In this document: piece after piece, positions 3,201 through 63,325 of the stretch
Layout of the letters: each line of letters begins with the position of its first letter
How positions within the stretch are numbered: position 1 is the first letter of the stretch
DNA from: Candidatus Omnitrophota bacterium
Lineage (GTDB): Bacteria; Omnitrophota; Omnitrophia; Omnitrophales; Aquincolibacteriaceae
Direction of reading: 5' to 3'
Assembly (NCBI GenBank): GCA_035352955.1
Contig: DAOPYQ010000007.1
Coordinates: 20,164-84,163 of the forward strand
Length of the DNA stretch: 64,000 bases
Translations under genes and position numbers: made by a program
Notes under the pieces: model-generated
Told to the model about the DNA's origin: nothing
What the model saw: the letters and a program-made list of their open reading frames with translations, nothing else
Databases searched by the model: none

Positions 3201-5331
3201 CCTCGAGTTCGTGCTTACGATTTTCAAGATCCTTCTTGGACGCCGTAAGATCCTCCAGAATATTGAGAGTTCCCTCCTGAGTACGCACAAGCTCCAGAGT
3301 TCGTTCCCCCACCTTTCTTTCAAGATCCTTGGAAAACTCATCGATCTCACGGTTTGCCGCGATCAGCGCCTCTTGTTTGTCCCGAATCTGGCGAATCATT
3401 TCGCTGAAAGTGTCCGCAAATCGTTCGATCTCATCTCCGGTCCGGATCTCGATCTGTTGTTCATCCCATTGTCCGGCCTTGATCTTCTCGGCCACCAGAA
3501 CCAGCTGCCGGATCGACGAAGAAAAACGCTCCCCCGCGACAACCCCCAAGAGGACCGCCAAAAGCAAAATAATCAAAAGCAGCAGCCCCATCCCCACCGC
3601 GAGTGAATTTAACGGGGAAAAAACCTCGTCAACATCCTGAGAAACGCAAACATACCAGGCGATATTGTTTCTAAGAAGCAAAGGGTCTTCCAACCGTTTT
3701 ATCGAGGTAAAGGTCGGACGGCCAGAAAGTTCTTCTCGCCTTCTCAAAAGACCGCCCTTCCCCGCAACAACGGCCTGCATCTCTTTTTCACTGAACAATT
3801 TTGTTCCCGAAGGAGAGAGCCCCTCATGAAAAATAATATCGCCCTTTTCATTAATCAAAGCCGCATGTCCCGTCCTTCCCGTCTTATAAGATTTAAGGGC
3901 GGAAAAGAAAATGTCGATCCCTATCGCCTCCTTACCGATCCCGAGGATCTCTTGACCCTCCCGGATAGGAATCGCTACAGGAATGGTCAAGATACCGGTG
4001 GAGCGATCGATTTCAACCTCTCCTATAAAAATGCTCCCTTTGCCCCCGGCGTACGCCCTCTTCCACCATTCTTCATCGGCTTGATAATAATCACTTGTCT
4101 TGTTCGAAGCCGCCGCCACGCCGCCGTATCGGTCTGTTAAAAAAATTTCGGCCACATCAAGATCTGTATCTGCAAGGATTTTGAGCCGCAAGCTCATCGG
4201 AGTCGCAAGGCAAGTGCTAACCAGCGGATCATCGATCCCGGCAGCGATCCATGCCGCATCTTTCTTTAAAAGTTCCTGCTGGACAGCCTCGGGGGACATA
4301 GAAACATACCGCAGGTTCGCGGTCTTGACAGCCTCATGCCAAACGGGGCTGTCGATATGGATCTGCATTTCCTGGACTTTCGAATCGATCATCTTGGAAA
4401 TCGAATACCCAAGGGTTCCCGTGACCTCGATCTGTTTGGCTTCGATCGCACCGAGCAAAAGGTTGTAGATCCATCCGAAAGTAACGCCCATGGTCAAAAG
4501 CACCGCAAAACCGCTTGTTAAGCAAACTACGAGCGTGATTTTGCGACGAATTCCGCCCCGTCTTTCGATACGGTCTTCATCGGTCGGCCGAAAGTAGATC
4601 CCTGTCACCGAAAAAAAGCAACCTGCCAAAACAAGGGCACAAACCATCCTAAAAAGTTGAACGGGAAATCCGGTCCAATCAAAAAAAGCGGGATAATTCA
4701 CGAATGAAGCGAGCAGAAATCCGGCTTGGGGAACAACCAACCCGCTCAGGATCCCATAAATGAAAAAAGCTCCGGCAGTAATCCATGTTCCAAAAAGAAC
4801 CGCTGGCGGCAACATTTTCTGATTACTCCGGAACAAAACCAGCAGAAGGGCCAGCGCCGTCATCCAAGTACCCGGCACACAAAGAAAATACCGGGCGACA
4901 ATCCCGGAGATCAAGAAATCACGGGTCAAAAAAAGCGCGGCGATCCAGCCGAGGATTCCGAAAACCCAAATGTGTTTTAAAAATTTGGAATTCGGGAAAA
5001 GGACCCTGCCCCCAAAAAGAACCAAAAAAACAAACGACGCCGGGAGAAGCAACGCTCCCAGGATCTTAAGGGGCATCACGGGAAACGGCTGACTCCGCAG
5101 AATAAGAAGGTCCACCCATTCGTTCAACCCGTGCAAAAGGGCGAACAACCCCACCAGCCACAGGTCACCGGACAAATTCAGCAGGTCATTTTTTTTGGGC
5201 ATCGCAAAGATCGTGACGCCCATGATCAAAAACGCTAATCCGTAAAAGAAAAAGATGGTCTGCATCCAACTCCCTTCAAAGATCCGATACCCAACAAGGA
5301 ATGGCTCTGAATTCAGAAAAATGAAATTCAA
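205..5331 (-). CDS. Multi-sensor histidine kinase, 1708 aa. Contains a polytopic N-terminal membrane domain, an extracytoplasmic Cache-like domain, HAMP/coiled coil, about six PAS/PAC repeats, HisKA and HATPase_c.
   Basis: Multiple N-terminal TM helices; repeated PAS signatures (several ...DITERK... / ...WDITESKQAQEAL... blocks); H-box FAYVASHDLQEPLRKI; ATP-binding G-boxes (DNGIGFD ... GSGIGLSVCQKIV). No receiver domain. Confidence 0.9.
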   Translation of the reverse strand: MNFIFLNSEPFLVGYRIFEGSWMQTIFFFYGLAFLIMGVTIFAMPKKNDLLNLSGDLWLVGLFALLHGLNEWVDLLILRSQPFPVMPLKILGALLLPASFVFLVLFGGRVLFPNSKFLKHIWVFGILGWIAALFLTRDFLISGIVARYFLCVPGTWMTALALLLVLFRSNQKMLPPAVLFGTWITAGAFFIYGILSGLVVPQAGFLLASFVNYPAFFDWTGFPVQLFRMVCALVLAGCFFSVTGIYFRPTDEDRIERRGGIRRKITLVVCLTSGFAVLLTMGVTFGWIYNLLLGAIEAKQIEVTGTLGYSISKMIDSKVQEMQIHIDSPVWHEAVKTANLRYVSMSPEAVQQELLKKDAAWIAAGIDDPLVSTCLATPMSLRLKILADTDLDVAEIFLTDRYGGVAAASNKTSDYYQADEEWWKRAYAGGKGSIFIGEVEIDRSTGILTIPVAIPIREGQEILGIGKEAIGIDIFFSALKSYKTGRTGHAALINEKGDIIFHEGLSPSGTKLFSEKEMQAVVAGKGGLLRRREELSGRPTFTSIKRLEDPLLLRNNIAWYVCVSQDVDEVFSPLNSLAVGMGLLLLIILLLAVLLGVVAGERFSSSIRQLVLVAEKIKAGQWDEQQIEIRTGDEIERFADTFSEMIRQIRDKQEALIAANREIDEFSKDLERKVGERTLELVRTQEGTLNILEDLTASKKDLENRKHELEAEVLERRRVQEELRGSKARLDLALQAASMGVWHFEIAEGKRYFDDQACHILGIDPSGFQGTTEEFFNVVHPDDREMLKRLFQETFETGVLYEPEYRVLRPGGMVRHITARGKLVRDETGKPLRVNGIVWDITESKQAQEALWTSRQMMKLVLDTVPIRVFWKDWYSTYLGCNQACAADLGLNSPEEIVGKTDFDLSWNSLANHYREDDKQVMERGVAKLNYEESAVKSDGRRFWTRTNKVPLRDEQGRVTGILGTYEDITAVREAEEKIRESEERFRTLVANLPSAVYRCKNDESWTMEFLSDEIFRISGYPASDFIHNRVRSYASIIHPEDQRITSDAVQRGIFEKKPYIVEYRILRADGVARWVYEKGQPIFDPRGNLLFLDGAILDITESREAAEKIRQLSRAVEQSPAAIVITNLQGNIEYTNPKFSEVTGYSFEETLGKNPRILKSGEQSREAYEKLWATILAGKEWRGEFHNRKKNGELFWEAASISPIKDAQGRITHFIAIKEDITERKKALEELRESEERYRSYIEVTGQLGWVTSADGKVEDMPPWREFTGQKVEDVKGWGWLEAIHPEDREHTRRVWGQAVETKSPYETEYRIRRSDGVYRDFLARGVPISNADGSIREWVGTCVDITERKKIEAALGASRNFLDRIINSVGDPLFVKDRDHRWMLVNDAYCNFMGRKREELIGKTDHDFFPRSEADVFWQKDEEVFLSKGENVNEEKFTDSKGFTHTVITKKVLYVDEDRKEHIVGVIVDITGLKKIQDELLRSNKELEQFAYVASHDLQEPLRKISAFSRLLSEKDTRVLDEESKDYLERMQGAAARMSSLIDALLAYSRVATREKVLEHIPLKDVVEEVLSDLEMRVKEADAVVDVGPLPVVYADRTQMHQLFLNLIGNALKYRKKDVPVRVAVRSSALPGHFEITVEDNGIGFDEKYKDRIFAPFQRLHTREEYEGSGIGLSVCQKIVRQMGGEITARSEAGKGSVFIVTFPKV

Positions 5332-14128: not shown

Positions 14129-17100
14129 TTATGCAGCTTTTTGAGTTTCAGATTGAGCGAGGTAAGCTTGTTCGATATCACGGAGAAGGGCATTGCCCAT
14201 AATCGTAATGAGCCGCCCATCCTTTTTGAAAGCTTGTTCGGAAACAGGATAACCGGTTTCTTGCAAGGCCCGGATCAGCTCGGCCTTAAGATCGATGGTT
14301 TCACCGGCCCCTTTCTTCTCTTTGGCAATGATAGCCACCTTAATCAGGATCGCAGCGAACAGCGCCTGGATCGCAAATTGAGTGTCCGCATCCATGTTCA
14401 TCCCCTCAGCGTTAAAGAAAAGCCCCTGGAACATTTCGTTAAGAGCGTTTGCATCCGCCGCGCTCCCAGCATCCAGAGCCATCGGAATGGCGCTTTGCCC
14501 ATCGGAAGCCGTTACGGCAATTCCGCCACGAATTTCTTTCGGGCTTAAAGGTCTTAGATTGAAAACCTCTCGCATGGCACCGCTCACTTTTTGTGCCAGC
14601 ACTTTGCCGGTATCACGATCTGAAAAGATTTCAGCTTGAAGCCCGTTTTCCAGAACAACCTTGAAAAGCTCCTCATAAAAAGACGCTAGACCAGGACCCT
14701 GGTCCTTAGAAAAATTGAGAGCGAGGGTAATCTGGGACGTGACAGGCATAGCCCCCTCGGCCCGCACGCGGCCGAACTTGAGAATCTTGGCCACACAATC
14801 CAATACCGCAGTGAGCCTCGTTCCTCCCGCCAGAGCAACTTCCTGAGTCACCGCTCTCTTAGCCAACTCCATCCCCACAACCTGTATGGCAGATCTAATC
14901 AAAGCATCAAGCTCACCTCGAACAACCACATATTCAATATGTTGCGCTTCTTCCGGGCCGAAACGCTGTGGGCTCACAGGATTCAACGCTTCCGCAACCC
15001 ATCCGCCCATTACCTCAGTAGACGTTTCATCCGTTACACGTTGTTCAGAGCGTGTAATAATAAATTCTGAAGGAAGCCGTGAGACAATAGAGGAAAATTC
15101 CGGCATTTTTTTATTTAAAACTTCGGTCACGATCTTTTTATAATCCGCAGGTTCGGTGAACTCTTCCGGCTTGAGGTCCAGTCCGGCATATTGGTTTACA
15201 AATTGAATAAATCGGCGTGCGATTTCAGGATTGATTCTCTCAAGGCCTTCTTTCGTCAGATCCTTATAAATAGAATCCCCGAGGCTGTCCTCTAACCGAT
15301 TTTGGAAATCAAAAACAAGATCGATTGCTTTTAAATAGGCCCTGATCCGTCCCCACGCCTCTCCGGAAAATCGCTGAGCCACCGCGTTGGGAATCGCATT
15401 CAATGACTCATCCAACTTGCGCCTATCACCCCGCATTACATAAAGGTTCTGACCACCACCGGGACTTCCGTTGAATGACTTAATAAGAAGTTCCATTTCG
15501 TAGATAAGTTTTCCGAGGGGGTAATCGTTTGTTCGGGCCGACCATGGAATATCCATATTTGAGGCAAGCGTTCTTAATTGAGCCTCAGTCCCGGCAAGAT
15601 GTGCCTTGTCCATGAGGTCCAATCCTTTGACTTCATCTAACCAAGTCGTCCCGTTAAAAGGATCCGTTATATTATTAGTGATCGTCATGGGAGTAAAACC
15701 ATGATCCAGAATCGATCGCTCCACAGCTTCCTGAGCGCCAAGATTTTCATCGAAATATGCAATTTGAATCTTTTTCTGGTCCAGCCATTGCCGCATCGCC
15801 TCGGGAATTTCCGCAAGCTTCCCTCGTCTGATGAGTATCCATGAGCCCTCAGGCAATTCAAAAGGTCCAACGTGCGACGTTGCAGTATGCCAAAGGTTGG
15901 CAAAGCCCTGCTTCGACGCCTCAGAAAAGGGGCTCATGAAAATTACATCAGCCGAATTGAGCATGGCGATGACACCGTTCAATGAAAACTCTACGATATT
16001 TCGAGGCAAACTCTCAAGAGGATGTTCCCCCTCAAAATAAGAATTAGGATAAAGTGCAATCCTTTTTCCATCCCAGACAAGACCTTGGGCGGCATGAACC
16101 AAAACCATGCCTTCGGGTCGCAAAGCACCGTCAGGACCGATCAGGGGTTGAGGTTTCCCACGTTCATCCTGCTCCTGCTGATAGAGAAGCTTCTGTTTCA
16201 GCTGGTGGACCTGATCTAGAACCCCAGATATTTTCTGAAGGCTCGAATCTCTTTCACCCGCAAAGGGATCCTCATTCGACAGCTTTGCTAATTTCGAAAA
16301 ACCCTCGGCTTCCAGGTTTACGGAGGGAAACCAGGCGCCTTTTTCAAAATTTCCTCCCCACAAGCCATTTCCGTCGACAAACTTTGCAGCTGCTGAAAAG
16401 AGCCCAGCGAGCTTGATGCAGGTTGAAGCTGAAATTCCAGAATTTTGAGAAAGCTGTGCGATCTTTTCAGCTCCCCAATCATCGGAACTTCGGATATAAC
16501 GGTTTTCTTCCTGGCTCCAAGGCAACTCGATAGGAGCATTCAAATAACTGGAAATAGCCAACGCTGTATCTGTTTCTCGTCGCGTGAATCCTAAATCCGT
16601 CATTACCCGCTCGATCACTTCTTTCATGAGTCGGTCCCGGTAATCGTAAAATCTTTCATTTTCACCCCTTTCAGGAACGGGGACACCCGCCTTTAAGAGC
16701 AAGTCGATCAAAGATCGATCGTCTTTACTGAACCAGGCATTTGCAGTAACAGTTTGCATATCCTGCAAAACTGCAAGGATCCGAATCACGGCTGCGATCC
16801 TGATTCCTGGCACCGCAGGAATTCCGTAAGATCGGAGCAATGGTTCAAGAATTCTAAAATAGCGCCTTTTTGCATCTATTAAATTGATATCGTGCCAGCG
16901 CACAAGCCTTCCGGCAGTGTTCACGTCATCCCGCGCCAAATGCCGGGTAAAGATCTTTTCTAGGTCCGGGTAATGCCGAAGAAAAAATTGGACGGGATCT
17001 CCTTCACCAGCTTCGAGAAAAGCGCTATCGTTTTCGGCGAACGCCACTGTAGGGGAAAGCTCAGGGTCAAGATACTGACGGGCCCTGTTCAAGAAAGCTT

Positions 17101-20100
17101 CAATCTCTCGAACCCGTTGCAGATCCTGAATCCCCGGGATTTCCAGGGCCAACTTATCTATAACCGCGATCAATTCGCCCCTTTCCATGGAGCTAAGCCT
17201 TGGCACCCCCCCAAGATCCACCCGCGCTTCGGAGCGGCCGGCTTGACCTATATTTCCGAGCAATTTTAAAATCTCAGGGCTTTTCACAAGCGCAGGCGGA
17301 TACTGGTTCTCTCCGATTTTTTCCGCTGGCAAGGAAGACAAAATATGGGATTGCCCGGTTCGCCCGATAAACAACTCCACCTCTTTATCCTGCACCCCTC
17401 TTTTAAACCGCCATTGTTCTCCACCCACAGCGATATCAAATTCCTTGTCTCCTGTTACAGCCCTTTTAGAAAAGTCATTGCTCAAGCGCTCAAAGAGCCT
17501 ATCAACAAGGGTAAGCGGTTTCTGTTTCATGCTCGGAATCCTTTCCGCTATTGTTATTGGCAAAATCCAATCGGTAGAAGGATTCGATATATTTTTATCT
17601 CCTTGTACTTTCTCAAAGCTCTGATGCTTTTTTCTGATTAAAATAAAATGATTAAATTCTCCATTGGAAGACCTATGAAAATAGAGCGTTCCCGCATCGG
17701 TCATGTTTCTACCCAACATTCGGCTTAGATCCTGAGTCTGAACCGCGGTTGAACTTTGGGCCGGCTTTAGCCCTTGAGGCTTCTCACCCAGAAGCATCCA
17801 TACATTACTCTTTTGAGGATCAAACATCTTGGTCTCCTGGGTGTGTCCTAACAATCCAATGGCCTTCTCAGAGATCATTTTTGAAACAACCTTTTGATCT
17901 CCCGACCATGACAACTCACTCGGCACGAGAACATGAACATGATAAAACCCGGACATAGTGCCAATTTCTTGATTTTGTTCATAACCGTTATCAACCGCAA
18001 AGGCTATCATTTTTTGAAGTGCATCAAGAAAGTGAGCTGGTATTTCTTCGGAAAAAAAATTGCGTTCATTATCTTTCATATACATGGCACGATAGGCATC
18101 CCAGGTTATCCATGCCGTCGCTGGCTGTTCCAAAGATTCAGCTCCAGATTCTTCGCGGTTTTCGGAACGGGTTTCGGGGCGTTTGTTCGCTGGAGTTCCA
18201 GAATCTGGCGCAGGAGAAACCTCCTCCCGAGTAAGTTGCCAACCATACCGTGCCGATTCCTTGCCATAATTCGACCTATCGATAAAAGCACCCTGCGGAG
18301 TTACCCTCATTCCGTCTATAATTTCGCCTTCCTCATTCAGCCTTCGATGAAACTGCGCGATAACGCCTGGAACTCTGGCCTGCACTCCTCTTTCCTCTTC
18401 CTCCGGACTACGTGAGTAAGAATCATCTCTATAATCAATTATGTACTCGATGTCCGACGCACGAAATCCTTTCCCCAACAACCTATTGTGGATGGCCTGT
18501 ACATGATCAGCAAGCGAACGGCCCTTGTCTTTCCAACGTATATAAATGTGGCCAAGCCCGTAATGAGCGGCGTAATTAGCAGAAGCGCGAATGTTGATGG
18601 CAACACCAGTGCAAGCAGAAAGATTGCGTGTCACCAAGCTAACGTTTGGATAAGTGTCAGAATCAAACACGGCCAGATCGCCCGTATTTATAAAAAAATC
18701 TTCACCTTCTTTTTCTATAGGCATAACACTATCGGTTGCATCGCCGTTCCAAACGAAAACGCCTCCTTCTCCATTTTTAACGTATTTAGCAGAGGATTGC
18801 ACTTTTTTACCCGTAACAGCATTCTTAATCATTTTCAAAGAGTTCATGAGCCAAGGCAGGAGTCTGATTTCTGTCCGCCCATCAGGTGCAAGTTGATTAG
18901 CTAAAGAAACTTCAGGGATAGTAATAGTTCTGATGAGCTGGAGGATGCTGGATTCGCTAAGGTTGCCTTCAGCCTGGAGTTGTTTGAGGCCTTCGCCGAA
19001 GCGGTCGATGTTGGCGAGCCATCGCTCTTTTAGATTTGAAGTTTGGAGCCGGGAGTTCGAAGAAAGCTCATCGATGAAATGGGTGTAGTTGCCGGCTTCA
19101 GTAACTCGTCCCTCAGAAGCAAGATCGCGGATGATTTGGTCACGCCATTCTTTTCCGACGATAGCGGAAGCATTTTTATCTCCAAGAAGCTTATCTCTTG
19201 CGGCTCTTACAAAAGCATCGTAAAGATTAACTTTACCGTTTTTGACTTCGAAATAATTGCTCCAGGAGACCTGCCCCTGCATGTGTTCGCGGTAAAGCGG
19301 CTCTTCGGGAATGGAACCGATTGAAGGCATAACGAGAACATAAGAGATCCCCTTTTCTTTCAACTCCCGTGTAAGCCCTTCGGTGTGGAAACCTCCGGCA
19401 ACGAGCAGAGAGCTCTCTTGTTTTGCTTTTTCCATCATAGACTGAATATTCTCGCGGAACACTTTATCGCGCTTCTCCGCAATACGATAAAAAGCTAGTT
19501 GCGGTTCCATCTTCTTGAGAAGCGCAGTGACTTCCTCCCAGCTGACAATCCGGTCCTGCGTTACGGTCCACTGATCCAGTTGAAGCATCATCTTCTGGAC
19601 CTTTCCCCAATCCTCAAAGCTGAGTTCGAGACGAGCGAGGCGTTTGATCAAATCGAGGCCTTTGCTTTTTTGATCGAGCACGCGCATTGCGTTGACGCGG
19701 TCGTTCTGCCCCGACTCTTGTTTTTCTTTGATGGACGGTAGTCGGGGCTGCCCCAATTTCTGCTCTGCTTCAATTGATGATGATAGGGACTGGAAAAGCG
19801 ATTCCTTGACCGAATCAGCGTAACGCTTAAAGTCCTCGAAAAGTCGCGTGCCTTCAATGTCTTTTAACCGTTTTTGATGCTCCGTTAAGTAAGCCAACTT
19901 GCGGGAGACCTTGACGCGAACCCCGTATTTTTTAGCCAGTCCCTTAAGATAGAGTGCAAAAGCCTGCGGAGTGACCTGCGCGATCCTAAATTCCTGATAT
20001 TTTTGGTTAAAAATGCGCAGGTCATCCCGAGCGGAGTCGAGGGATCTTTCTTTAAGAACGGCTTCGACTTTTTGAGCGATCTTTTTGATCTCGATCTCGA

Positions 20101-20950
20101 CAGGCGTATCCGTCATTTGGCCCTTGTCCCCATTGGACAAGGACGGCTTCGGCGAGAACTTGTTGTTCTCGTCCGAACCGCTCAGTTTTATTTCTTCAAG
20201 CAATACCGCGAGTTCGGAACCTTTGGGTGGCAGCTGATATTCAGCAAGTTTATTCAGAATCTGCACAAGGTCTGTTTTATTCTCGCCAAAATCCGCCAAC
20301 AGCCGATCGATCTCAAACATCTCTTTGGAATAGACGAATCCTTTTTCCTTGTTCAGAGCGGCCGCCATCGGATCAAGCAGTGCCTTGATCTCAGGTTCCA
20401 TCTTCATCGCCTGAAGATAATAGGAAACGCCTTCTTCATAGAGCGACCAATCCTCAATGCCCTGATAGGTGCCGGGGGATGCATTGAACAGTGCTGCCGC
20501 CGTGCCGCCGGTGAGTTCGCCCCTTCCTGCGTAAGCATCGAAGGTTTTGCGAAGCAGTTCCTTATCTGGGAAACTCTTGAATATCTGCGGGTCCAGTTTT
20601 TCGGATGCCCCTTCGAGGCCGACCAATGAAACTCCGTATTGGGTCTGGAAATGATCAATGGCGGACCGAATACTGTGCTGGGCATCGGGAATCGAGTGGG
20701 CATCCTGGATCAGCACCACAACCTCATCACCCGACCCGCGGTAGGTCTCTTGAATCTTCCCGATCTCTTTAGGTATTGCGATTGCCGTAAGATCATTCGT
20801 GAGCGATCGAAAACTTACAGCAGGTGTTGGACTAATTTCAGCACTCGCTTGCGGCAAGTAACCCGAAGTCACAAAAAACGCTGCGCACACGAATAGAGCT
20901 ATTCCTTTTCTCAGCATTGGCCTTGGTGACTTTTTGTAAATCTTTATCAT
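14129..20950 (-). CDS. Giant (2273 aa) secreted protein of unknown function; N-terminal signal peptide, no domain I can assign
   Basis: Uninterrupted 6.8-kb ORF. N-terminus MIKIYKKSPRPMLRKGIALFVCAAFFVTSGYLPQASA/EIS (SPase I type). Non-repetitive sequence with no catalytic motif I recognise. Coding region is visibly AT-richer than its flanks. Confidence 0.8.
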   Translation of the reverse strand: MIKIYKKSPRPMLRKGIALFVCAAFFVTSGYLPQASAEISPTPAVSFRSLTNDLTAIAIPKEIGKIQETYRGSGDEVVVLIQDAHSIPDAQHSIRSAIDHFQTQYGVSLVGLEGASEKLDPQIFKSFPDKELLRKTFDAYAGRGELTGGTAAALFNASPGTYQGIEDWSLYEEGVSYYLQAMKMEPEIKALLDPMAAALNKEKGFVYSKEMFEIDRLLADFGENKTDLVQILNKLAEYQLPPKGSELAVLLEEIKLSGSDENNKFSPKPSLSNGDKGQMTDTPVEIEIKKIAQKVEAVLKERSLDSARDDLRIFNQKYQEFRIAQVTPQAFALYLKGLAKKYGVRVKVSRKLAYLTEHQKRLKDIEGTRLFEDFKRYADSVKESLFQSLSSSIEAEQKLGQPRLPSIKEKQESGQNDRVNAMRVLDQKSKGLDLIKRLARLELSFEDWGKVQKMMLQLDQWTVTQDRIVSWEEVTALLKKMEPQLAFYRIAEKRDKVFRENIQSMMEKAKQESSLLVAGGFHTEGLTRELKEKGISYVLVMPSIGSIPEEPLYREHMQGQVSWSNYFEVKNGKVNLYDAFVRAARDKLLGDKNASAIVGKEWRDQIIRDLASEGRVTEAGNYTHFIDELSSNSRLQTSNLKERWLANIDRFGEGLKQLQAEGNLSESSILQLIRTITIPEVSLANQLAPDGRTEIRLLPWLMNSLKMIKNAVTGKKVQSSAKYVKNGEGGVFVWNGDATDSVMPIEKEGEDFFINTGDLAVFDSDTYPNVSLVTRNLSACTGVAINIRASANYAAHYGLGHIYIRWKDKGRSLADHVQAIHNRLLGKGFRASDIEYIIDYRDDSYSRSPEEEERGVQARVPGVIAQFHRRLNEEGEIIDGMRVTPQGAFIDRSNYGKESARYGWQLTREEVSPAPDSGTPANKRPETRSENREESGAESLEQPATAWITWDAYRAMYMKDNERNFFSEEIPAHFLDALQKMIAFAVDNGYEQNQEIGTMSGFYHVHVLVPSELSWSGDQKVVSKMISEKAIGLLGHTQETKMFDPQKSNVWMLLGEKPQGLKPAQSSTAVQTQDLSRMLGRNMTDAGTLYFHRSSNGEFNHFILIRKKHQSFEKVQGDKNISNPSTDWILPITIAERIPSMKQKPLTLVDRLFERLSNDFSKRAVTGDKEFDIAVGGEQWRFKRGVQDKEVELFIGRTGQSHILSSLPAEKIGENQYPPALVKSPEILKLLGNIGQAGRSEARVDLGGVPRLSSMERGELIAVIDKLALEIPGIQDLQRVREIEAFLNRARQYLDPELSPTVAFAENDSAFLEAGEGDPVQFFLRHYPDLEKIFTRHLARDDVNTAGRLVRWHDINLIDAKRRYFRILEPLLRSYGIPAVPGIRIAAVIRILAVLQDMQTVTANAWFSKDDRSLIDLLLKAGVPVPERGENERFYDYRDRLMKEVIERVMTDLGFTRRETDTALAISSYLNAPIELPWSQEENRYIRSSDDWGAEKIAQLSQNSGISASTCIKLAGLFSAAAKFVDGNGLWGGNFEKGAWFPSVNLEAEGFSKLAKLSNEDPFAGERDSSLQKISGVLDQVHQLKQKLLYQQEQDERGKPQPLIGPDGALRPEGMVLVHAAQGLVWDGKRIALYPNSYFEGEHPLESLPRNIVEFSLNGVIAMLNSADVIFMSPFSEASKQGFANLWHTATSHVGPFELPEGSWILIRRGKLAEIPEAMRQWLDQKKIQIAYFDENLGAQEAVERSILDHGFTPMTITNNITDPFNGTTWLDEVKGLDLMDKAHLAGTEAQLRTLASNMDIPWSARTNDYPLGKLIYEMELLIKSFNGSPGGGQNLYVMRGDRRKLDESLNAIPNAVAQRFSGEAWGRIRAYLKAIDLVFDFQNRLEDSLGDSIYKDLTKEGLERINPEIARRFIQFVNQYAGLDLKPEEFTEPADYKKIVTEVLNKKMPEFSSIVSRLPSEFIITRSEQRVTDETSTEVMGGWVAEALNPVSPQRFGPEEAQHIEYVVVRGELDALIRSAIQVVGMELAKRAVTQEVALAGGTRLTAVLDCVAKILKFGRVRAEGAMPVTSQITLALNFSKDQGPGLASFYEELFKVVLENGLQAEIFSDRDTGKVLAQKVSGAMREVFNLRPLSPKEIRGGIAVTASDGQSAIPMALDAGSAADANALNEMFQGLFFNAEGMNMDADTQFAIQALFAAILIKVAIIAKEKKGAGETIDLKAELIRALQETGYPVSEQAFKKDGRLITIMGNALLRDIEQAYLAQSETQKAA
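19706..19795. repeat. ~90-bp hairpin-containing repeat, in-frame copy inside the giant CDS
   Basis: Perfect 9-bp inverted repeat gccccgact (19708-19716) / agtcggggc (19740-19748), then ctgccccaatttctgctctgc.tcaattgatgatgatagggactggaa. It encodes ...EAEQKLGQPRLPSIKEKQESGQNDRV... of the giant protein. Confidence 0.6.
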
Positions 20951-21395: not shown

Positions 21396-21532
21396 AGGAT
21401 TTGGCGCCTCCGCTCGCCTCGTGCAACGAGGCAAGCTACGGTCGGCCACCCGCACTTACAAACATGACATTAATTCATGTTTGTGAACAAGTGCTCCCTT
21501 CAAATCCCGGGAACCCATCAATGTAAAGAAAC
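21396..21532. repeat. Second direct copy of the tRNA-Gln 3' 18-19 nt (att-like) plus the 119-bp arm element between it and the intact tRNA
   Basis: 21396-21414 ctggggaaccaggatttgg; 21415-21532 holds the imperfect palindrome cacttacaaacatgacattaattcatgtttgtgaacaagtg, similar to copy A. Confidence 0.7.
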
Positions 21533-21603
21533 CTGGGGAACCAGGATTTGAACCTAGACTAGGTGATCCAGAGTCACCTGTGCTACCGTTACACCATTCC
21601 CCA
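21533..21603 (-). tRNA. tRNA-Gln (anticodon CTG)
   Basis: Minus-strand TGGGGAATGGTGTAACGGTAGCACAGGTGACTCTGGATCACCTAGTCTAGGTTCAAATCCTGGTTCCCCAG. It has a 7-bp acceptor stem with U1-A72, G73 discriminator, anticodon loop CUCUGGA, and T-loop GGTTCAAATCC. CCA is not encoded. Confidence 0.8.
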
Positions 21604-21816
21604 ACGTATCAAGCAGAGCAAATTTAATTGCGGCAACGGGATCTTGAAGTCCCGCTTGCGGCGTCGCGCAGTCCCGGCTGACTTGTGACCGGGGCACTAT
21701 TCCCCAATAAATCAACGATTGAATTATAGCCGATAACCTCAAAAAGAGGAGGGATTATAGCGGGACTTTCTGTTTCGCGCAATGTCTGCCGCAGAACAAT
21801 CCCGAGACTCTCGGAA

Positions 21817-32680: not shown

Positions 32681-32749
32681 GGAAAAGAAACCGTGCCTCG
32701 ATCTCACGGGATGACCGGCCATTCGCTTCTTCCGCTATATAAAAAACTT

Positions 32750-32823
32750 TGCCCCTAGCATGAATCGAACATGCAACCCTCTCCTTAGGAAGGAGATGCT
32801 CTATCCAATTGAGCTATAGGGGC
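32750..32823 (-). tRNA. tRNA-Arg (anticodon CCT)
   Basis: Minus-strand GCCCCTATAGCTCAATTGGATAGAGCATCTCCTTCCTAAGGAGAGGGTTGCATGTTCGATTCATGCTAGGGGCA forms a cloverleaf with anticodon loop UUCCUAA and T-loop TTCGATT. Confidence 0.8.
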
Positions 32824-33065
32824 ATTGAAACCCAATGTTTTAATACGACACCGTCGAGGCTCGATGTTTTAGATCGTCCCTATGGGATCTGGGAGGCCTC
32901 GTACGCTAACCGCCTATTTCCCGATAAATCTATAAAGATACGGAAGAAAACAGGGAGAATGATAGCAGATTCCCCCATGGCTGTCTCTATACAAACCCGC
33001 CAAAATTAGGCATAGTGACGGTCACCTGCATGCCAAGGATGCGCTACCTCACCCGATGCGTCAGG

Positions 33066-33602
33066 TTACCCTTCCCCGCCGGACGGCATCCGGTATCCGG
33101 GTATCTCCGGCATCTGTAGATTGCCAGCGTATCTATAGGATTCTAAGCAAAAGCGGCGCAATGAATCACTGCCTTTTGCATAGAAAAGAACCCAATCGTC
33201 CCCATATTCATTCACATCATAAGTACCACCAGCAGATAAGTCCATTTTTAGGTGGCCGATAGAATTGATGGCAACAGCTTTCTCAGTCTGCGGCAACCTC
33301 AAGGCAAAAGATATATTTGTAGCCTGAAAACCAAAAATAACTCCATTTTTGGGTCTCACTAAAACCGCGCGGCCACGAACAATCCACCTGCAATCTTCCG
33401 GCAAATCTTTTGTTATTTCATTCCAAAAGATTCTTACAACTTCCGCATGCATTCCAAGCTTTAGTTCTACTTGGTCTATCGAGGCAGGGTCACATTCATC
33501 TTTCGTTTGAAAATTATAAGCGGGCTTAATAAATGGACCATGTTTTGATAAATATTTTTGGTTAGCCGGATGTGAAAAATTCACTTTGGACATTTGCACC
33601 AC
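33066..33602 (-). CDS. Hypothetical protein (178 aa) in the AT-rich island
   Basis: ORF with no recognisable motif; AT-rich codon usage unlike the core genes. Confidence 0.4.
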   Translation of the reverse strand: MVQMSKVNFSHPANQKYLSKHGPFIKPAYNFQTKDECDPASIDQVELKLGMHAEVVRIFWNEITKDLPEDCRWIVRGRAVLVRPKNGVIFGFQATNISFALRLPQTEKAVAINSIGHLKMDLSAGGTYDVNEYGDDWVLFYAKGSDSLRRFCLESYRYAGNLQMPEIPGYRMPSGGEG

Positions 33603-33632
33603 TCTACAAAGCTACTTTAATCGGGTCGGGGA

Positions 33633-33995
33633 TCATTTCGTATACTCTTCTTCAAGAATTTTTCCCGTATTAATATCTATTCGATACCTAGATTGCCTGC
33701 CACCAGCCCAAAGGTTACCCTCTTTATCAAATCCAACTCCCCCAAACTGATCAGGAATCCTGACCTTGTGTCCAACTCTCCACATGTCTGGGTCTTCAAC
33801 CTTCCAAATTTGCTTTCCATCTTGATTAAGGCAAATAATCCCTTCGTCGGGCACCTCGTCTCCCATCAATTCAAAGCGAACAATAATTTGCGTTTCGGTG
33901 GTTACAATATTCCCAATGGGATGTTTGAAATCCATAGTCTTCGTTCGGGTACCGTTCTCGATCGTAAGAAGAGACCCTTTGAAGCTGACATTCAT
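33633..33995 (-). CDS. Hypothetical small protein (120 aa)
   Basis: Start moved to the internal ATG (33993-33995), which is preceded by AGGAGG and removes the overlap with the upstream membrane-protein gene. Confidence 0.4.
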   Translation of the reverse strand: MNVSFKGSLLTIENGTRTKTMDFKHPIGNIVTTETQIIVRFELMGDEVPDEGIICLNQDGKQIWKVEDPDMWRVGHKVRIPDQFGGVGFDKEGNLWAGGRQSRYRIDINTGKILEEEYTK

Positions 33996-34015
33996 CCCCA
34001 CAATCCCCTCCTTTT

Positions 34016-34501
34016 TTATAAGTTTCTGCAGCGGAAGTCCCCAATATTCCCCTGCTCTGATTTGAACTTTTCCCTTACCTGCGGAAGAGAAAGATACCAA
34101 ATAAAAATGGCGGGTAACGGGATGTGAAATGACCAAAAGCAAAAAAGCATGCTGGCAGATGCGTCCCAACCTATTTTATAAGCAACGGTGGCAAACCAAA
34201 TTGACCATCCAAGCATGTAGACTGTCACGGCTACGAGCAAAAACACGTAGATCGCCCTCGCTAAATTTCTCATCTTGTAAATTCCGAACAAAAGAACCGC
34301 ACTGATAATTCCTGCCAGCTCACCCATGACAATCTCTATCCAAATAAGCCGTTCGTATTTTAAAAGTTCAAATTTTACAAGCTCGTATACTGGCACCCCA
34401 ATAAACGAGTATGCGGTAGTTAAAACCATTACCACAAACATCCAAATAAATCCTTTGGGTTTTTCGGCTTTTGCTAAGCTATTTTTTTCTTTTATTTCCA
34501 A
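34016..34501 (-). CDS. Small integral membrane protein (about 4 TM helices)
   Basis: Four hydrophobic helices (FIWMFVVMVLTTAYSFIGV..., LAGIISAVLLFGIY..., IYVFLLVAVTVYMLGWSIWFATV..., MLFCFWSFHIPLPAIFIWYL). Confidence 0.5.
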   Translation of the reverse strand: MEIKEKNSLAKAEKPKGFIWMFVVMVLTTAYSFIGVPVYELVKFELLKYERLIWIEIVMGELAGIISAVLLFGIYKMRNLARAIYVFLLVAVTVYMLGWSIWFATVAYKIGWDASASMLFCFWSFHIPLPAIFIWYLSLPQVREKFKSEQGNIGDFRCRNL

Positions 34502-34599
34502 AGCCCCCTCCTGTTCTCCCGCGCTTCCTTCTGCGATACAAGAAACCTCCCGTTGGGCTTGCCCTTAATCGAGCCGGAGATCATTTTCGTAACCAACTC

Positions 34600-35538
34600 T
34601 TATTGGCTTTCGTTTCTTTCTCCCTCAAGCCTTACCTCCTGAACTTCACAATAACCTGGCCGACTTTCAAATCCAGGGCGAGACTTTCCCGTAACAAAAT
34701 CGGTAACAACCGGATATTGCATAGTTTCCGAATAATCGATTTTCTCCGCTTCCCGTGAAATGCATTGGACCTCGATCCTTTTATTTTCGAATTTCTTCAA
34801 CCTTTCCTCTGAAACCACTTTGGACGGACGCAATATCACCCTGTCTTTCGGATCTTCTGTTTTCAGCACAAAATCCAGCCCCAAAAATGATTCCACGGAT
34901 TTTGTTTGCGGATGAAATTCCAACTCTCCGACAAACGTCTTAACATCCGAGTTCTGCACAGCGCGTGTTTTTTGAACTTCCGTCGAAACAGTATCCCACG
35001 ATCCTCTTTTAGCTTCTCTCGCTTCCTTCTGCAATTTAAGTAACAGCTCGGCATACTTCACATTCGGCGCGGCTGGAACGGCCTGCCCCGCCGTGGTTAC
35101 AAGCGGGGTCATGACTTGGGCGTAGCCGGACTTGATGAGGGTGGCGTTGAGAAAGATGCAGGCAGTGATGCTTCCATCAGGATCTTGCATATCAAGATAT
35201 TCGTACTTGGGATTTCTTCGTGTATCGCAGTTATTGCATACCACAACATAAACATATGCCAAGAGCCGTTTGTATTTGTCCCTCTGTTGCACATCATAAT
35301 CGAGCCTGACCTGTTTTCCTTCCGCAAGTTGGCGGGTAAACTCCGCCGCTTTCTTGCCCTGTTCAGGATCTTCGGGTGGCTGGATGCCGATCAGGGAAAC
35401 TGTTTGGCCGTCCGAAAGTTCGAGCGTCGTCGCGTCGATGACTTTGGTGACCGTGAGAGAGGTATCGGCAGCCCGGCAAGGCGCGGCAAGAAATGAAACA
35501 GCGAGAAGCGTCAGCAGGATCAGCTTCCTCATAGGCAA
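34600..35538 (-). CDS. Secreted two-domain protein: signal peptide, thermonuclease (SNase)-like domain, and a ~150-aa C-terminal domain of unknown function
   Basis: Signal peptide MPMRKLILLTLLAVSFLAAPCRA. Residues ~30-190 match the SNase fold (VTKVIDATTLELSDGQTVSLIGIQPPE ... LNATLIKSGYAQV ... EAREAKRGSW). Confidence 0.55.
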   Translation of the reverse strand: MPMRKLILLTLLAVSFLAAPCRAADTSLTVTKVIDATTLELSDGQTVSLIGIQPPEDPEQGKKAAEFTRQLAEGKQVRLDYDVQQRDKYKRLLAYVYVVVCNNCDTRRNPKYEYLDMQDPDGSITACIFLNATLIKSGYAQVMTPLVTTAGQAVPAAPNVKYAELLLKLQKEAREAKRGSWDTVSTEVQKTRAVQNSDVKTFVGELEFHPQTKSVESFLGLDFVLKTEDPKDRVILRPSKVVSEERLKKFENKRIEVQCISREAEKIDYSETMQYPVVTDFVTGKSRPGFESRPGYCEVQEVRLEGERNESQ

Positions 35539-35577
35539 ATATTATAGCGTTGCCGGAAAGAGCTGGCTAGGCGGGTT

Positions 35578-36099
35578 TTAGTACTTCAATAACGAACAAA
35601 CGTCGTAATCCGCGAGTTTTTCACGGCCCTTGAGAGGCTCCAGTTCGATCACGAACGCCAGAAGCCCAACCTTGCCGCCGACCGCTTCCACGAGTTTCGT
35701 GGCCGCTTCGGCCGTTCCGCCGGTCGCAAGAAGATCGTCCACGATCATCACTTTTTGGCCCGGCTTGACCGCGTCCTCATGGATCTCAAGCACCTCTTCC
35801 CCATATTCCAGAACACAGGGGACCCGGTGCGTCCGCCATGGCAGCTTTCCTTTTTTGCGGATCGGCACAAAACCGACCCCCAGCTTTGCCGCAAGAGGCG
35901 CTCCGAAAATAAACCCCCTGGACTCGATCCCGGCCACCATCGCGATCTTGTGCTTTTTCGCCACCTTGGCCAGTTCCTCGATGATCTCACGGAAAGATTT
36001 CGGGTCCTTGAGCAGCGGGGTAATATCGCGGAAAAGGATCCCCTTCTTGGGGAAATCAGGGATGGTGCGGACTTTTGCTTTCAGGGACCTTACGCTCAC
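35578..36099 (-). CDS. apt: Adenine phosphoribosyltransferase
   Basis: PRPP-binding VMIVDDLLATGGTAEA and APRT N-terminal pattern. Confidence 0.88.
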   Translation of the reverse strand: MSVRSLKAKVRTIPDFPKKGILFRDITPLLKDPKSFREIIEELAKVAKKHKIAMVAGIESRGFIFGAPLAAKLGVGFVPIRKKGKLPWRTHRVPCVLEYGEEVLEIHEDAVKPGQKVMIVDDLLATGGTAEAATKLVEAVGGKVGLLAFVIELEPLKGREKLADYDVCSLLKY

Positions 36100-52607: not shown

Positions 52608-53402
52608 TCAGTTCAGTTTCGCAGGATCAAAGCGGAATTGGGGGTCGAGCCCCTTAAGTTCCCTGGCCAATTCAAGGATACGGTTCCTCACACAGCCGTC
52701 ATGCGTGGCAAGCCACCGCTGGTAGGACTCGAGGAACTGGTCCAGCTTGATCTCGCGCCGGTGTTCGTCCTCATAATGTTCGAGCTGCTGGAAAAATCTC
52801 TGGAACGCTTGGTCGCGAAAACAGTCGATAAATTTAAAATAGTCTTCCCGAGCGCCAGAAAGGATGTTGAAATAAAGATCGAGATTTTCCGCGATCTTCC
52901 CCAACACTTCCCCCACGCCGGTTTTTTTATCATAAACGACCTCATGGCATTTGCAGGCGTGACGGTAATACATCCTCGCAGCCATCCGCTTTTCATCCGG
53001 TTTGTCTTTCTTTGAAAAAAAACGTTTTCCCTTCGCTAATTCCGGATCAAGGATCGTCGACTGGATCAGCAAATGATCCGCGTTCACTTTAAAGATAAAA
53101 TAGCGGAGCATCGGGTCATCGGTATCCCGGACCCACTCAAAGACCTCTTCCGGCCTTGACGAAATGAACGGATCCGCCATCTCGTGATATTCGGGAAGCG
53201 AGGTGGCGAAGAGGAGGTGCGCAAGATAGATGTTCACGTCTTCATCGAAACGGTTCCCGCAAGCGAACGCCGGGTCCTGATCACGGACTTTCAGGATCGA
53301 TTCCAGAAGAAAATAAATGGCAGACTCACGCTCTTCACTTGAAAGATTGGCGTAAAGAAATGCCTTATGCGATTCCTGTTTTTCCTGTTGGTTTTCGTTC
53401 AT
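52608..53402 (-). CDS. Hypothetical protein (264 aa)
   Basis: ORF preceded by a strongly AT-rich 180-bp intergenic region; no recognisable motifs. Confidence 0.45.
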   Translation of the reverse strand: MNENQQEKQESHKAFLYANLSSEERESAIYFLLESILKVRDQDPAFACGNRFDEDVNIYLAHLLFATSLPEYHEMADPFISSRPEEVFEWVRDTDDPMLRYFIFKVNADHLLIQSTILDPELAKGKRFFSKKDKPDEKRMAARMYYRHACKCHEVVYDKKTGVGEVLGKIAENLDLYFNILSGAREDYFKFIDCFRDQAFQRFFQQLEHYEDEHRREIKLDQFLESYQRWLATHDGCVRNRILELARELKGLDPQFRFDPAKLN

Positions 53403-62989: not shown

Positions 62990-63325
62990 TTAAAGATCCT
63001 TGGAACAGCACTGTTTTCCTTGTTGATCGTTTTCAAACAAAAAACAGTGCTGGAAATTTTTCCAGATAGTCTTGCGGAAAGTATCATTCTCTTCCATTAG
63101 AAGAAAAAGACGCGCGCGGAGTTTCTCGATAAAAGCTTCCTGCTGCGGGTATCGCTCCTGGTTCACGAAAAGATCGATCCGGCGAATATAATCGTTGATC
63201 ATGAGCATGTTCTTCCGGATCTGATCCTTGACGATCCGGATCTCTTCGGAGGTAAACCTCACGGCTTCGCAATCCATTTCCTTTTTTTCGGGCTCCGGGA
63301 TGTCACAACCGAAGTGCAAAATCAT
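62990..63325 (-). CDS. Hypothetical protein (111 aa)
   Basis: ORF only. Confidence 0.3.
   Translation of the reverse strand: MILHFGCDIPEPEKKEMDCEAVRFTSEEIRIVKDQIRKNMLMINDYIRRIDLFVNQERYPQQEAFIEKLRARLFLLMEENDTFRKTIWKNFQHCFLFENDQQGKQCCSKDL

Follow-up and report, generated by a model that had tools for sequence, protein, structure and literature searches.

Two kinds of described systems are among those closest to the locus presented here. For nucleases of the staphylococcal type (SNase), the roles of Ca2+, Arg35, Arg87 and Glu43 in catalysis have been worked out (PMC8436206), and SN domains that are not catalytic are known as well (PMC2441809). Polymorphic-toxin or T6SS systems, on the other hand, are accompanied by orphan immunity genes and islets (PMC12247911, PMC10470768, PMC10539506, PMC7400221). 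The locus belongs to a Candidatus Omnitrophota genome, of which one stretch of 64 kb (the window) was studied. Within it, an islet of four co-directional minus-strand genes, A to D (35538..33066), lies between apt and tRNA-Arg(CCT). We conclude that this is an ordinary variable accessory islet with, in addition, a modest hint of orphan immunity genes.

Layout, composition and conservation of the islet

The features to which the following sections refer are given in the order of transcription:

35541..35569, minus strand: promoter-like site TAGCCA-17-TATAAT in the 39-nt apt-A spacer, 10/12 consensus matches
35538..34600, minus strand: gene A, predicted SNase-fold, exported protein; 312 aa if started at TTG and 310 aa if started at the ATG (35532)
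34993..35463, minus strand: SNase-like domain of A, aa 26-182; GC 0.526; T21/S35/Q40/P41/E43/R87
34603..34992, minus strand: AT-rich in-frame insertion in A (formerly an 'unknown C-terminal domain'); 390 nt, aa 183-312, GC 0.438
34565..34604, minus strand: 40-nt copy of the 3' end of gene C and the following spacer; spans the stop codon of A
34492..34599, minus strand: relic of the original SNase C-terminus, ending in RFLVSQKEARENRRGLWK and a stop; GC 0.551
34501..34016, minus strand: gene B, 161 aa, four transmembrane (hydrophobic) segments
33995..33633, minus strand: gene C, 120 aa, cytoplasmic, assigned to DUF7957
33617..33652, minus strand: reference copy of the 40-nt repeat, comprising the end of C (EEEYTK and stop) and the start of the C-D spacer
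33593/33602..33066, minus strand: gene D, 175 aa (ATG at 33593) or 178 aa, cytoplasmic alpha/beta protein of an unnamed family
32953..32976, minus strand: terminator-like hairpin between gene D and the tRNA gene, a consensus match only
32824..32749, minus strand: tRNA-Arg(CCT), Rfam tRNA, 69.5 bits

Open reading frames and hydrophobicity bear out the layout first described for this locus, with an exported SNase-fold protein in the lead, a protein with four transmembrane segments and two small proteins. The spacing had been put at 18-60 nt. This is wrong for the A-B gap, which measures 98 nt, while B and C are 20 nt and C and D 30-39 nt apart. The stop codon of D is followed after 241 nt by tRNA-Arg(CCT), so that the islet sits 5' of the tRNA gene and the latter downstream of the islet. 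The -10 hexamer of the promoter-like site ends 8 nt ahead of the ATG of gene A (35532). It is a consensus match only, and such sites are no commoner in the region than in shuffled sequence. The tight spacing and the presence of a single promoter-like and a single terminator-like site are compatible with an A-D operon and hence with a functional link between the four genes.

The composition of the islet is not uniform. The ORFs of the window (n=48) have a mean GC of 0.531 +/- 0.036 and a GC3 of 0.616 +/- 0.074. Genes B (0.405), C (0.427) and D (0.426) fall about 3 sd below this GC mean, while the neighbouring apt reaches 0.563; in composition, these three genes deviate from their background. 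However, the initial annotation had called all four genes AT-rich, and this does not extend to aa 1-182 of A with their native GC of 0.526. Read along the islet, GC drops to 0.438 in the C-terminal part of A, returns to 0.551 in the A-B spacer and falls again from B onward.

The four genes are not co-conserved as a block. In ten loci that carry SNase relatives, none of B, C and D stands in the vicinity, and the distributions of these three in sequence space are unrelated to one another. Profile-based searches for loci related to the block found nothing, scans of viral contigs came back empty, and C and D gave no tblastn match to plasmids. PADLOC and PHROGs delivered domain-level SNase matches for A alone and nothing for B, C and D. 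Within the window, there is no other paralogue of the SNase or of B, C or D. In agreement with the first description, domain searches found no integrase domain in the four products, and neither end of tRNA-Arg(CCT) is repeated within the 64 kb (allowing up to 3 mismatches).

An integron cassette array or CALIN was considered as well. The attC recombination sites of integrons measure at least about 55 nt and lie between promoterless ORFs. The B-C and C-D spacers leave no room for such a site, and none of the spacers of the islet contains an inverted-repeat pair; on account of spacer length, integron cassettes were rejected as an explanation of the small genes.

Gene A and its interrupted nuclease domain

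Gene A matches the Pfam SNase family PF00565 with aa 46-182 over positions 1-106 of the 107 in the model (E 2.9e-11; 44.2 bits at a cut-off of 21), a thermonuclease in the PDB (E 5.7e-6) and a home-built family HMM (E 8e-65). A hydrophobic segment spans aa 6-24 and a signal peptide is predicted. The N-terminal half had been described as a signal peptide followed by an SNase fold, and this description stands, with the fold core intact.

The active site presents a different picture. If aligned to the S. aureus nuclease, A carries the replacements D21->T, R35->S, D40->Q and T41->P, while E43, Y85 and R87 are kept. Of the catalytic residues, Glu43 and Arg87 are present, but Arg35 is a serine and both acidic Ca2+ ligand positions (Asp21, Asp40) are substituted as well, which amounts to three of the five key residues. 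Thr41, whose backbone also contributes to Ca2+ binding, is a proline in A. Such replacements are not the rule in the family: among 119 relatives, Asp21 is found in 100, Arg35 in 103, Asp40 in 94 and Glu43 in 106, so that the three residues lost from A are each kept by about 80-87%. The modal signature at positions 21/35/40/41/43/87 is DRDTER (68/119), whereas A reads TSQPER. We infer that A is exported but has lost catalysis or is badly impaired in it, and that it is at most a nucleic-acid binder and possibly decaying. With Glu43, Arg87 and Tyr85 in place and Thr or Gln as possible weak metal ligands, A may have residual or altered nuclease activity. In either case, the label 'thermonuclease' given by annotation pipelines overstates the sequence, as the metal site and one catalytic arginine are missing.

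Degenerate active sites also occur in many of the close SNase relatives.

The initial annotation had noted about 150 aa of unknown function behind the nuclease domain. This segment, for which no homologue was detected, comprises 130 aa and proved to be an in-frame insertion inside the 3' end of the SNase gene. In the frame of A it contains no stop in 130 open codons, and its G1 of 0.37 is a coding signature. No family match was obtained for the 130 aa in Pfam, PADLOC or PHROGs, and Smith-Waterman comparison with the tails of 28 SNase relatives stayed at shuffle level (best z 2.2). Two candidate origins were rejected, namely an OB fold like that of the P0079 tail (z 0.7 for P0079, Smith-Waterman) and a decayed DUF7957 copy, for which neither HMM nor Smith-Waterman gave a signal beyond the last 40 nt.

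Behind the single TAA that ends A, and still in its frame, follows the relic of the original C-terminus. It matches positions 160-177 of the family HMM (E 1.7e-6, or 1.9e-5 over the whole window), and its end overlaps the start codon of gene B. The last SNase helix is interrupted by the insertion and a stop. The 40-nt copy of the end of gene C, which lies across this junction, scores 33 in local alignment, compared with 14.8 +/- 2.3 in 1000 shuffles (maximum 26). In addition, the DNA segment encoding QKEARE is present twice, 498 nt apart. Over the 20.9 kb that could be compared with an independent contig (L001), the sole difference is a single frameshifting T indel at 34758. It falls inside the insertion, which makes up about 1.9% of the compared length. 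As it lies in a T run, it could be an assembly error.

Genes B, C and D and their homologues

Homologues were collected by an exhaustive HMMER search of 1.84 billion representatives with B, C and D as a joint query. It gave 229 hits in the representative library at E<=1e-3. Most of those listed map to D, at least 14 of 150 listed map to C, and for B only the P0123 cluster appears among the matches listed. Domain searches found no match of B to a transporter family. A B homologue with 43% identity is encoded on one related contig, L009 (rpoD 80% and apt 73% identical to the window). Downstream of apt, this contig carries different AT-rich genes, then an SNase 3' fragment of 80 aa, to which the SNase is cut down, and directly after it the B homologue. 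The site is therefore variable, and the linkage of A to B is seen in this one contig. Ancestrally, a secreted SNase of about 190 aa would have been translationally coupled to the membrane protein B.

The small proteins had been described as without recognisable motifs, which does not apply to C. DUF7957 (PF25857) is precomputed for the identical protein on L001 and for the homologues P0124, P0126 and P0127; C is clearly homologous to these proteins (48-38% identity). The model of C (15-sequence alignment, pLDDT 87) has 12 strands in what would be about three beta-propeller blades, and Foldseek matched it to propellers only (E 0.008-0.05). In this the predicted structure resembles beta-propeller fragments that self-assemble, PDB 2yms among them. 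Gene D, without a Pfam match, gave a model with an alpha/beta fold and a pLDDT of 91 (34-sequence alignment). Its best structural matches are YjbR, PSPTO_3016 and the 'double-wing' fold of the T4 MotA C-terminus, all of them weak and not significant (E 0.045 and 0.24, TM 0.32-0.45) and without sequence relationship to D. Judging by the model, D is best treated as a family without known structural relative. Neither C nor D has a signal peptide or a transmembrane segment.

What encourages a functional proposal is the position of their closest homologues. The D homologues P0121 and P0122 start 41-45 nt after C-terminal domains that are homologous to each other (51% identity over 238 aa) and large. 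In the case of C, the homologues P0124 and P0127 overlap the stop codon of the gene ahead, whose C-terminal domain is conserved (Smith-Waterman 218 vs 29 +/- 5). In two of these loci, small transmembrane proteins that are homologous to each other stand behind the pair (96 vs 26.5 +/- 5). This immunity-like slot is occupied by the two closest homologues each of C and D, while more distant members differ: the D homologue P0128 is found behind a GGDEF-GAF-HD-GYP gene, which is not a toxin context, P0130 closes a row of mixed small genes, and the C homologue P0126 stands alone. C and D match no recognised immunity family, and Pfam, NCBIfam and the PDB gave no match to the putative toxin domains of the partners; the partners are thus labelled 'toxins' from gene order only. 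In tblastn, the four partner proteins found nothing below E 0.1 in the window. Since 64 kb of the genome are visible, the cognate toxins could lie elsewhere. A junction motif ahead of the toxin domain, shared by the partners of C and D type, was also considered and dropped (Smith-Waterman 45 vs 32 +/- 5, not significant).

Explanations and known systems

We regard it as moderately probable that the islet is a lineage-specific accessory patch, built downstream of apt by several recombination events, and neither a coherent system nor a tRNA island. The initial annotation had offered two functional readings instead. According to one, A would be an exported nuclease toxin with B, C or D as immunity or membrane partners in one operon. 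The signal peptide, the SNase fold, the retained Glu43 and Arg87 and the co-directional, tightly spaced genes between one promoter-like and one terminator-like site are what a toxin operon would look like, and so is the start of B that overlaps the old SNase stop, with the SNase-B adjacency again in L009. We nevertheless hold it to be very improbable: Arg35 is gone together with both acidic Ca2+ ligands, the C-terminal 130 aa behind this degenerate site belong to no recognised toxin type, a cytoplasmic immunity protein is unexpected for a Sec-exported enzyme, and C and D never stand beside SNase relatives in the 10 other loci, while their closest homologues are paired with unrelated proteins. 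According to the other, the genes form a module for scavenging extracellular DNA or nutrients, with A as an active secreted nuclease of unusual metal site and B as its partner or transporter. The many secreted SNase paralogues of Omnitrophota, the export of A and a polytopic B that was once translationally coupled to the ancestral SNase fit such a module. It is hardly any more probable, given the three active-site losses, a last helix broken by insertion and stop, and a B with only four transmembrane segments, no transporter match and one homologue cluster. Because the active site is degraded and the genes are not co-conserved, both readings largely fall, the C-terminal part of A being an orphan insertion besides; what survives is the intact fold core with Glu43 and Arg87, and the link of A and B in L009.

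Two further explanations concern the fate and the origin of the islet. It might be functionless recombination debris with A as a pseudogene in the making, and the in-frame relic behind the TAA, the lone frameshifting difference to L001, the 80-aa SNase fragment of L009 and the degenerate sites of many close relatives would all agree with decay. However, the insertion keeps 130 open codons with a coding signature, B, C and D are intact, the models of C and D are confident and the indel is perhaps an assembly error, so that we consider decay of the whole locus unlikely. A classical tRNA-targeted integrative island is suggested by deviant GC next to a tRNA gene; with no integrase domain, no repeated tRNA end, a position at the 5' side rather than the 3' end of the tRNA gene, and an SNase part and B that are common by descent with L009, it is barely credible.

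The accessory patch that we prefer leaves room for a more specific proposal: C and D may be orphan immunity-like genes unrelated to A. From their sequences and neighbours, they would be cytoplasmic binders of the immunity type that arrived without the cognate toxins. Going further, we tentatively suggest, as a possibility well short of the accessory patch itself in likelihood, that Omnitrophota and groundwater bacteria have an undescribed, polymorphic-toxin-like system, with DUF7957 and the D family as its immunity families and C and D as orphans of it here. The parts of such a system would be an immunity gene, a conserved small protein with two transmembrane segments and a protein whose C-terminal domain varies and, in the case of D, is large. 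The genome would retain C and D as orphaned immunity genes at a hot spot of recombination; if of the immunity type, they would neutralise incoming toxins by binding, and the same traffic of cassettes might have produced the crippled SNase with its in-frame insertion as a by-product. If this lead is true, it provides DUF7957 and the D family with a testable function in immunity, and the locus points to an unrecognised toxin system in Omnitrophota. This is a phylum of tiny, possibly host-dependent bacteria, for which we know of no cultured models. Otherwise the value of the analysis is corrective: a supposed 'secreted nuclease toxin' is an SNase-fold protein from which the metal site and one of the catalytic arginines are missing, and the four genes do not form a module.

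Compared with described systems, A shares with the staphylococcal and micrococcal nucleases the signal peptide, the full-length domain match, Glu43, Tyr85 and Arg87, and the C-terminal motif KEARExKRGxW was found for A too. It differs from them by Thr, Ser, Gln and Pro in place of Asp21, Arg35, Asp40 and Thr41, by a 30-aa Cys-containing loop common to the Omnitrophota relatives and by the 130-aa orphan insertion ahead of a displaced C-terminus. The domain SN5 of Tudor-SN likewise retains the SNase/OB fold with replaced active-site residues and might serve as a precedent for a binding instead of a cleaving role (PMC2441809). However, Tudor-SN is eukaryotic, intracellular and composed of multiple domains. 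The orphan immunity islets of polymorphic-toxin and T6SS systems differ from our case in that the partners of the C and D homologues match no recognised toxin and the A-D islet carries no recombinase or mobile-element signature. Yet C and D are likewise small, cytoplasmic and toxin-less in a variable patch of foreign composition, and their closest homologues likewise directly follow the C-terminal domains of other proteins.

Layout, composition and setting of the islet

The four genes between apt and tRNA-Arg(CCT) form a real AT-rich accessory patch, the parts of which are not one system. The islet and its flanks are arranged as follows:

36099..35578: apt, flanking the islet on the side of gene A
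35538..34600, minus strand: gene A, lead gene with SNase fold (PF00565), ORF of 312 aa
34501..34016, minus strand: gene B, four-TM protein, ORF of 161 aa
33995..33633, minus strand: gene C, DUF7957 (PF25857), ORF of 120 aa
33593 or 33602..33066, minus strand: gene D, unnamed family, ORF of 175 or 178 aa
32824..32749: tRNA-Arg(CCT), flanking the islet on the side of gene D

Judged from sequence comparison, A is a chimeric SNase-fold protein that appears crippled and has an orphan C-terminal insertion, B probably is an old neighbour of A, and C and D are small proteins that are distributed independently. In a 1-kb profile, GC drops to 0.44 within the islet versus about 0.55 on either side, while the values of B (0.405), C (0.427) and D (0.426) compare with a mean of 0.531 ± 0.036 for 48 long ORFs of the window. 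ORFs and GC values thus bear out the AT-rich patch of four co-directional genes described in the initial annotation, while some of its details require correction: the spacing, given as 18–60 nt, amounts to 98 nt between A and B; the C-terminal extension of A comprises 130 aa instead of about 150; and C, said to lack recognisable motifs, is assigned to a Pfam DUF. The JGI metagenome contig L001 (sample 3300009692), an independent contig from the same genome, shares 99.995% identity with the window over 20.9 kb.

A TATAAT -10-like hexamer (promoter-like site, 35532-35569) ends 8 nt before the ATG of A, where a Shine-Dalgarno sequence is absent. Clear GGAGG sites precede B and C, unlike A, the mRNA of which could be leaderless or nearly so.

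A tRNA island is ruled out, since the four products contain no integrase domain, neither end of tRNA-Arg(CCT) is repeated in the window, and the islet lies on the 5' side of the tRNA gene. Domain and repeat searches agree with the annotation, which had reported neither integrase nor repeated tRNA end. An Rfam 'Plastid-ycf2' match antisense to the tRNA (32749-32823, plus strand), whose 28.7 bits fall short of the 65.7-bit gathering threshold, is read as a spurious mirror of it.

The other AT-rich stretch of the window beside a tRNA, tRNA-Gln(CTG) at 21532-21604, is a giant ORF of 2273 aa (14129-20950, minus strand; GC 0.479, GC3 0.48) in which no Pfam domain was found. Two further low-GC ORFs likewise gave no Pfam match, one of 264 aa (52608-53402; 0.493, inside a 1-kb stretch at 0.449) and one of 111 aa (62990-63325; 0.446). 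The stretch 205-5331 carries ordinary signalling genes, first one for a sensor histidine kinase of 1708 aa with a dCache and at least four PAS domains, then one for a dCache protein of 546 aa.

Gene A: a degenerate SNase fold with a C-terminal insertion

By segment prediction and inspection, A starts with a hydrophobic segment followed by ..CRA/AD, which is consistent with Sec export. The Pfam SNase model is matched along its entire length (E 2.9e-11), and a thermonuclease was matched in the PDB (E 5.7e-6). In alignment with S. aureus nuclease, Glu43, Tyr85 and Arg87 are kept, while Asp21 is replaced by Thr, Arg35 by Ser, Asp40 by Gln and Thr41 by Pro.

Active-site residues of A aligned with 119 database relatives
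Position 21: D in 100/119 relatives, T in A
Position 35: R in 103/119 relatives, S in A
Position 40: D in 94/119 relatives, Q in A
Position 43: E in 106/119 relatives, E in A
Position 87: R in 117/119 relatives, R in A

The modal signature is DRDTER (68 of the 119 relatives), that of A is TSQPER; degenerate signatures also occur in many of its 40 closest relatives, such as DSQPQR in P0006. Given these substitutions, the established roles of Ca2+, Arg35, Arg87 and Glu43 in SNase catalysis (PMC8436206) and the precedent of SN-like domains without catalysis (PMC2441809), A retains the fold but is a poor nuclease candidate: competent Ca2+-dependent activity appears unlikely. Of the SNase-like nuclease proposed earlier, the fold, Glu43 and Arg87 stand, while Asp21, Arg35 and Asp40 are lost.

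The best-named relatives of A are proteins from Candidatus Omnitrophota MAGs, so that the window probably derives from an Omnitrophota bacterium. On Omnitrophota contigs, two to three SNase-like paralogues lie within a few kb (L004, 6001-12591; a 17.9-kb contig with P0013, P0034 and P0103), and between them are a radical-SAM gene and numerous small ORFs of no known function. This pattern suggests that secreted SNase-fold proteins, many with degenerate active sites, have multiplied and diversified in a lineage-specific manner.

Nearly all relatives cover no more than 45–64% of A, the exceptions being P0001, a protein from the same genome, and P0079; the tail of P0079, compared alone with that of A, showed no similarity (z 0.7). 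GC forms a mosaic, with native values for aa 1-182 (0.526) and the 98-nt A-B spacer (0.551) and 0.438 for aa 183-312. The spacer encodes ..RFLVSQKEARENRRGLWK*, the canonical SNase-family C-terminus (family HMM positions 160-177; E 1.7e-6 for the region, 1.9e-5 for the whole window). This relic lies in the reading frame of A with one TAA in between, and its final codons overlap the TTG start of B. DNA encoding QKEARE occurs in two copies 498 nt apart, and 40 nt that repeat the 3' terminus of gene C and the spacer behind it lie exactly at the stop of A (local score 33 versus 14.8 ± 2.3, maximum 26, in 1000 shuffles). Because the inserted frame has a genuine coding signature, being free of stops (0 in 130 codons) and having G at 37% of first positions, the insertion is foreign coding DNA that was joined to A in frame rather than random read-through. 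The C-terminal segment beyond the SNase part that had been annotated as an unknown domain is an orphan insertion. The sole difference between window and L001 over the 20.9 kb, a T-run indel (TTT at window 34758, TT at L001 10775), falls inside it and shifts the frame, so that 312 aa in the window correspond to 299 aa and an additional ORF of 30 aa in L001. The indel points either to a mistake in assembly or to relaxed constraint.

Gene B and the site behind apt

Around the SNase relatives P0006 and P0003 and at seven genome loci, tblastn, phmmer and family HMMs detected no homologues of B, C or D; the four-gene block is thus not conserved at the loci examined. An exhaustive HMMER search with B, C and D concatenated against 1.84 billion representatives gave 229 hits at E<=1e-3. 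Among the best 150, one cluster (P0123) is homologous to B, 14 hits belong to C (the DUF7957 family), and all remaining ones belong to D.

P0123 lies on L009, a contig of a related organism (rpoD 80%, apt 73% identical), in the order apt, different AT-rich genes, an 80-aa SNase 3'-end fragment and the B homologue. The fragment has the unusual TPxxTxAGQ linker in common with A. Because of this arrangement, SNase and B probably are an old lineage-specific pair, the SNase appears to be eroding in both lineages, and the region after apt is a variable site. At 1282-6622 of L009 lie a GDSL lipase, a response regulator and a zinc-ribbon membrane protein, the last of which stands in place of the SNase 5' part, and the B homologue is accompanied by a second small TM protein with a similar ..VKExFK tail and by secreted proteins of 204 and 77 aa; all these genes after apt are AT-rich (GC 0.37-0.45).

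Two functions had been envisioned for the islet, an exported nuclease toxin with its partners or the scavenging of DNA. Retained fold and predicted export would suit either, but with a crippled active site and genes that are not one system both are unsupported.

Genes C and D and the context of their homologues

Neither signal peptide nor TM segment was found in C or D. The confident model of C (pLDDT 87, 12 strands) matches only beta-propellers in the PDB, self-assembling fragments among them (E 0.008-0.05, TMq <=0.66), which suggests about three propeller blades. The best matches of the D model (pLDDT 91), YjbR, PSPTO_3016 and MotA, are weak and not significant (E 0.045 in PDB, 0.24 in BFVD), and by sequence even a 34-member profile found no match in Pfam or PDB. 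In some proteins, TPR or WD40 repeats are joined to the D-domain.

The D homologues P0121 (50% identity; L005-L008) and P0122 (48%; L022) each begin 41-45 nt behind the gene of a large protein, and these two large proteins are 51% identical over their C-terminal 238 aa. The C homologues P0124 (48% identity; L010) and P0127 (L011, L012) each overlap with the stop codon of the gene before them, and a conserved C-terminal domain is common to these upstream genes (Smith-Waterman 218 versus 29 ± 5). Small TM proteins homologous to each other come next after the pair on L005 and L010 (96 versus 26.5 ± 5). This succession of upstream protein and C or D homologue fits a toxin-immunity gene order. However, searches of Pfam, NCBIfam and PDB gave no match for the domains upstream, the window yielded no homologue of the partner proteins, and the giant 2273-aa ORF shows no similarity to them. 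Farther homologues vary in setting: one of D follows a GGDEF-GAF-HD-GYP gene, another is the last gene of a mixed small-gene array, and one of C is solitary.

On L005 (1-6368), L006 and L022, the gene of a large Gly/Ser/Thr-rich protein is followed by those of the D homologue and of a 2-TM protein of 66 aa. The trio adjoins Replic_Relax (L005) and DDE transposase (L022) genes and resembles a mobile, toxin-like cassette of groundwater metagenomes, without family assignment.

Only one element of this analysis looks forward, the hypothesis, open to testing, that DUF7957 and the unnamed D family have an immunity role. C and D might be orphan immunity genes, a tentative reading that we consider possible and somewhat on the doubtful side; there is ample precedent elsewhere for such genes in variable islets (PMC12247911, PMC10470768, PMC10539506, PMC7400221).
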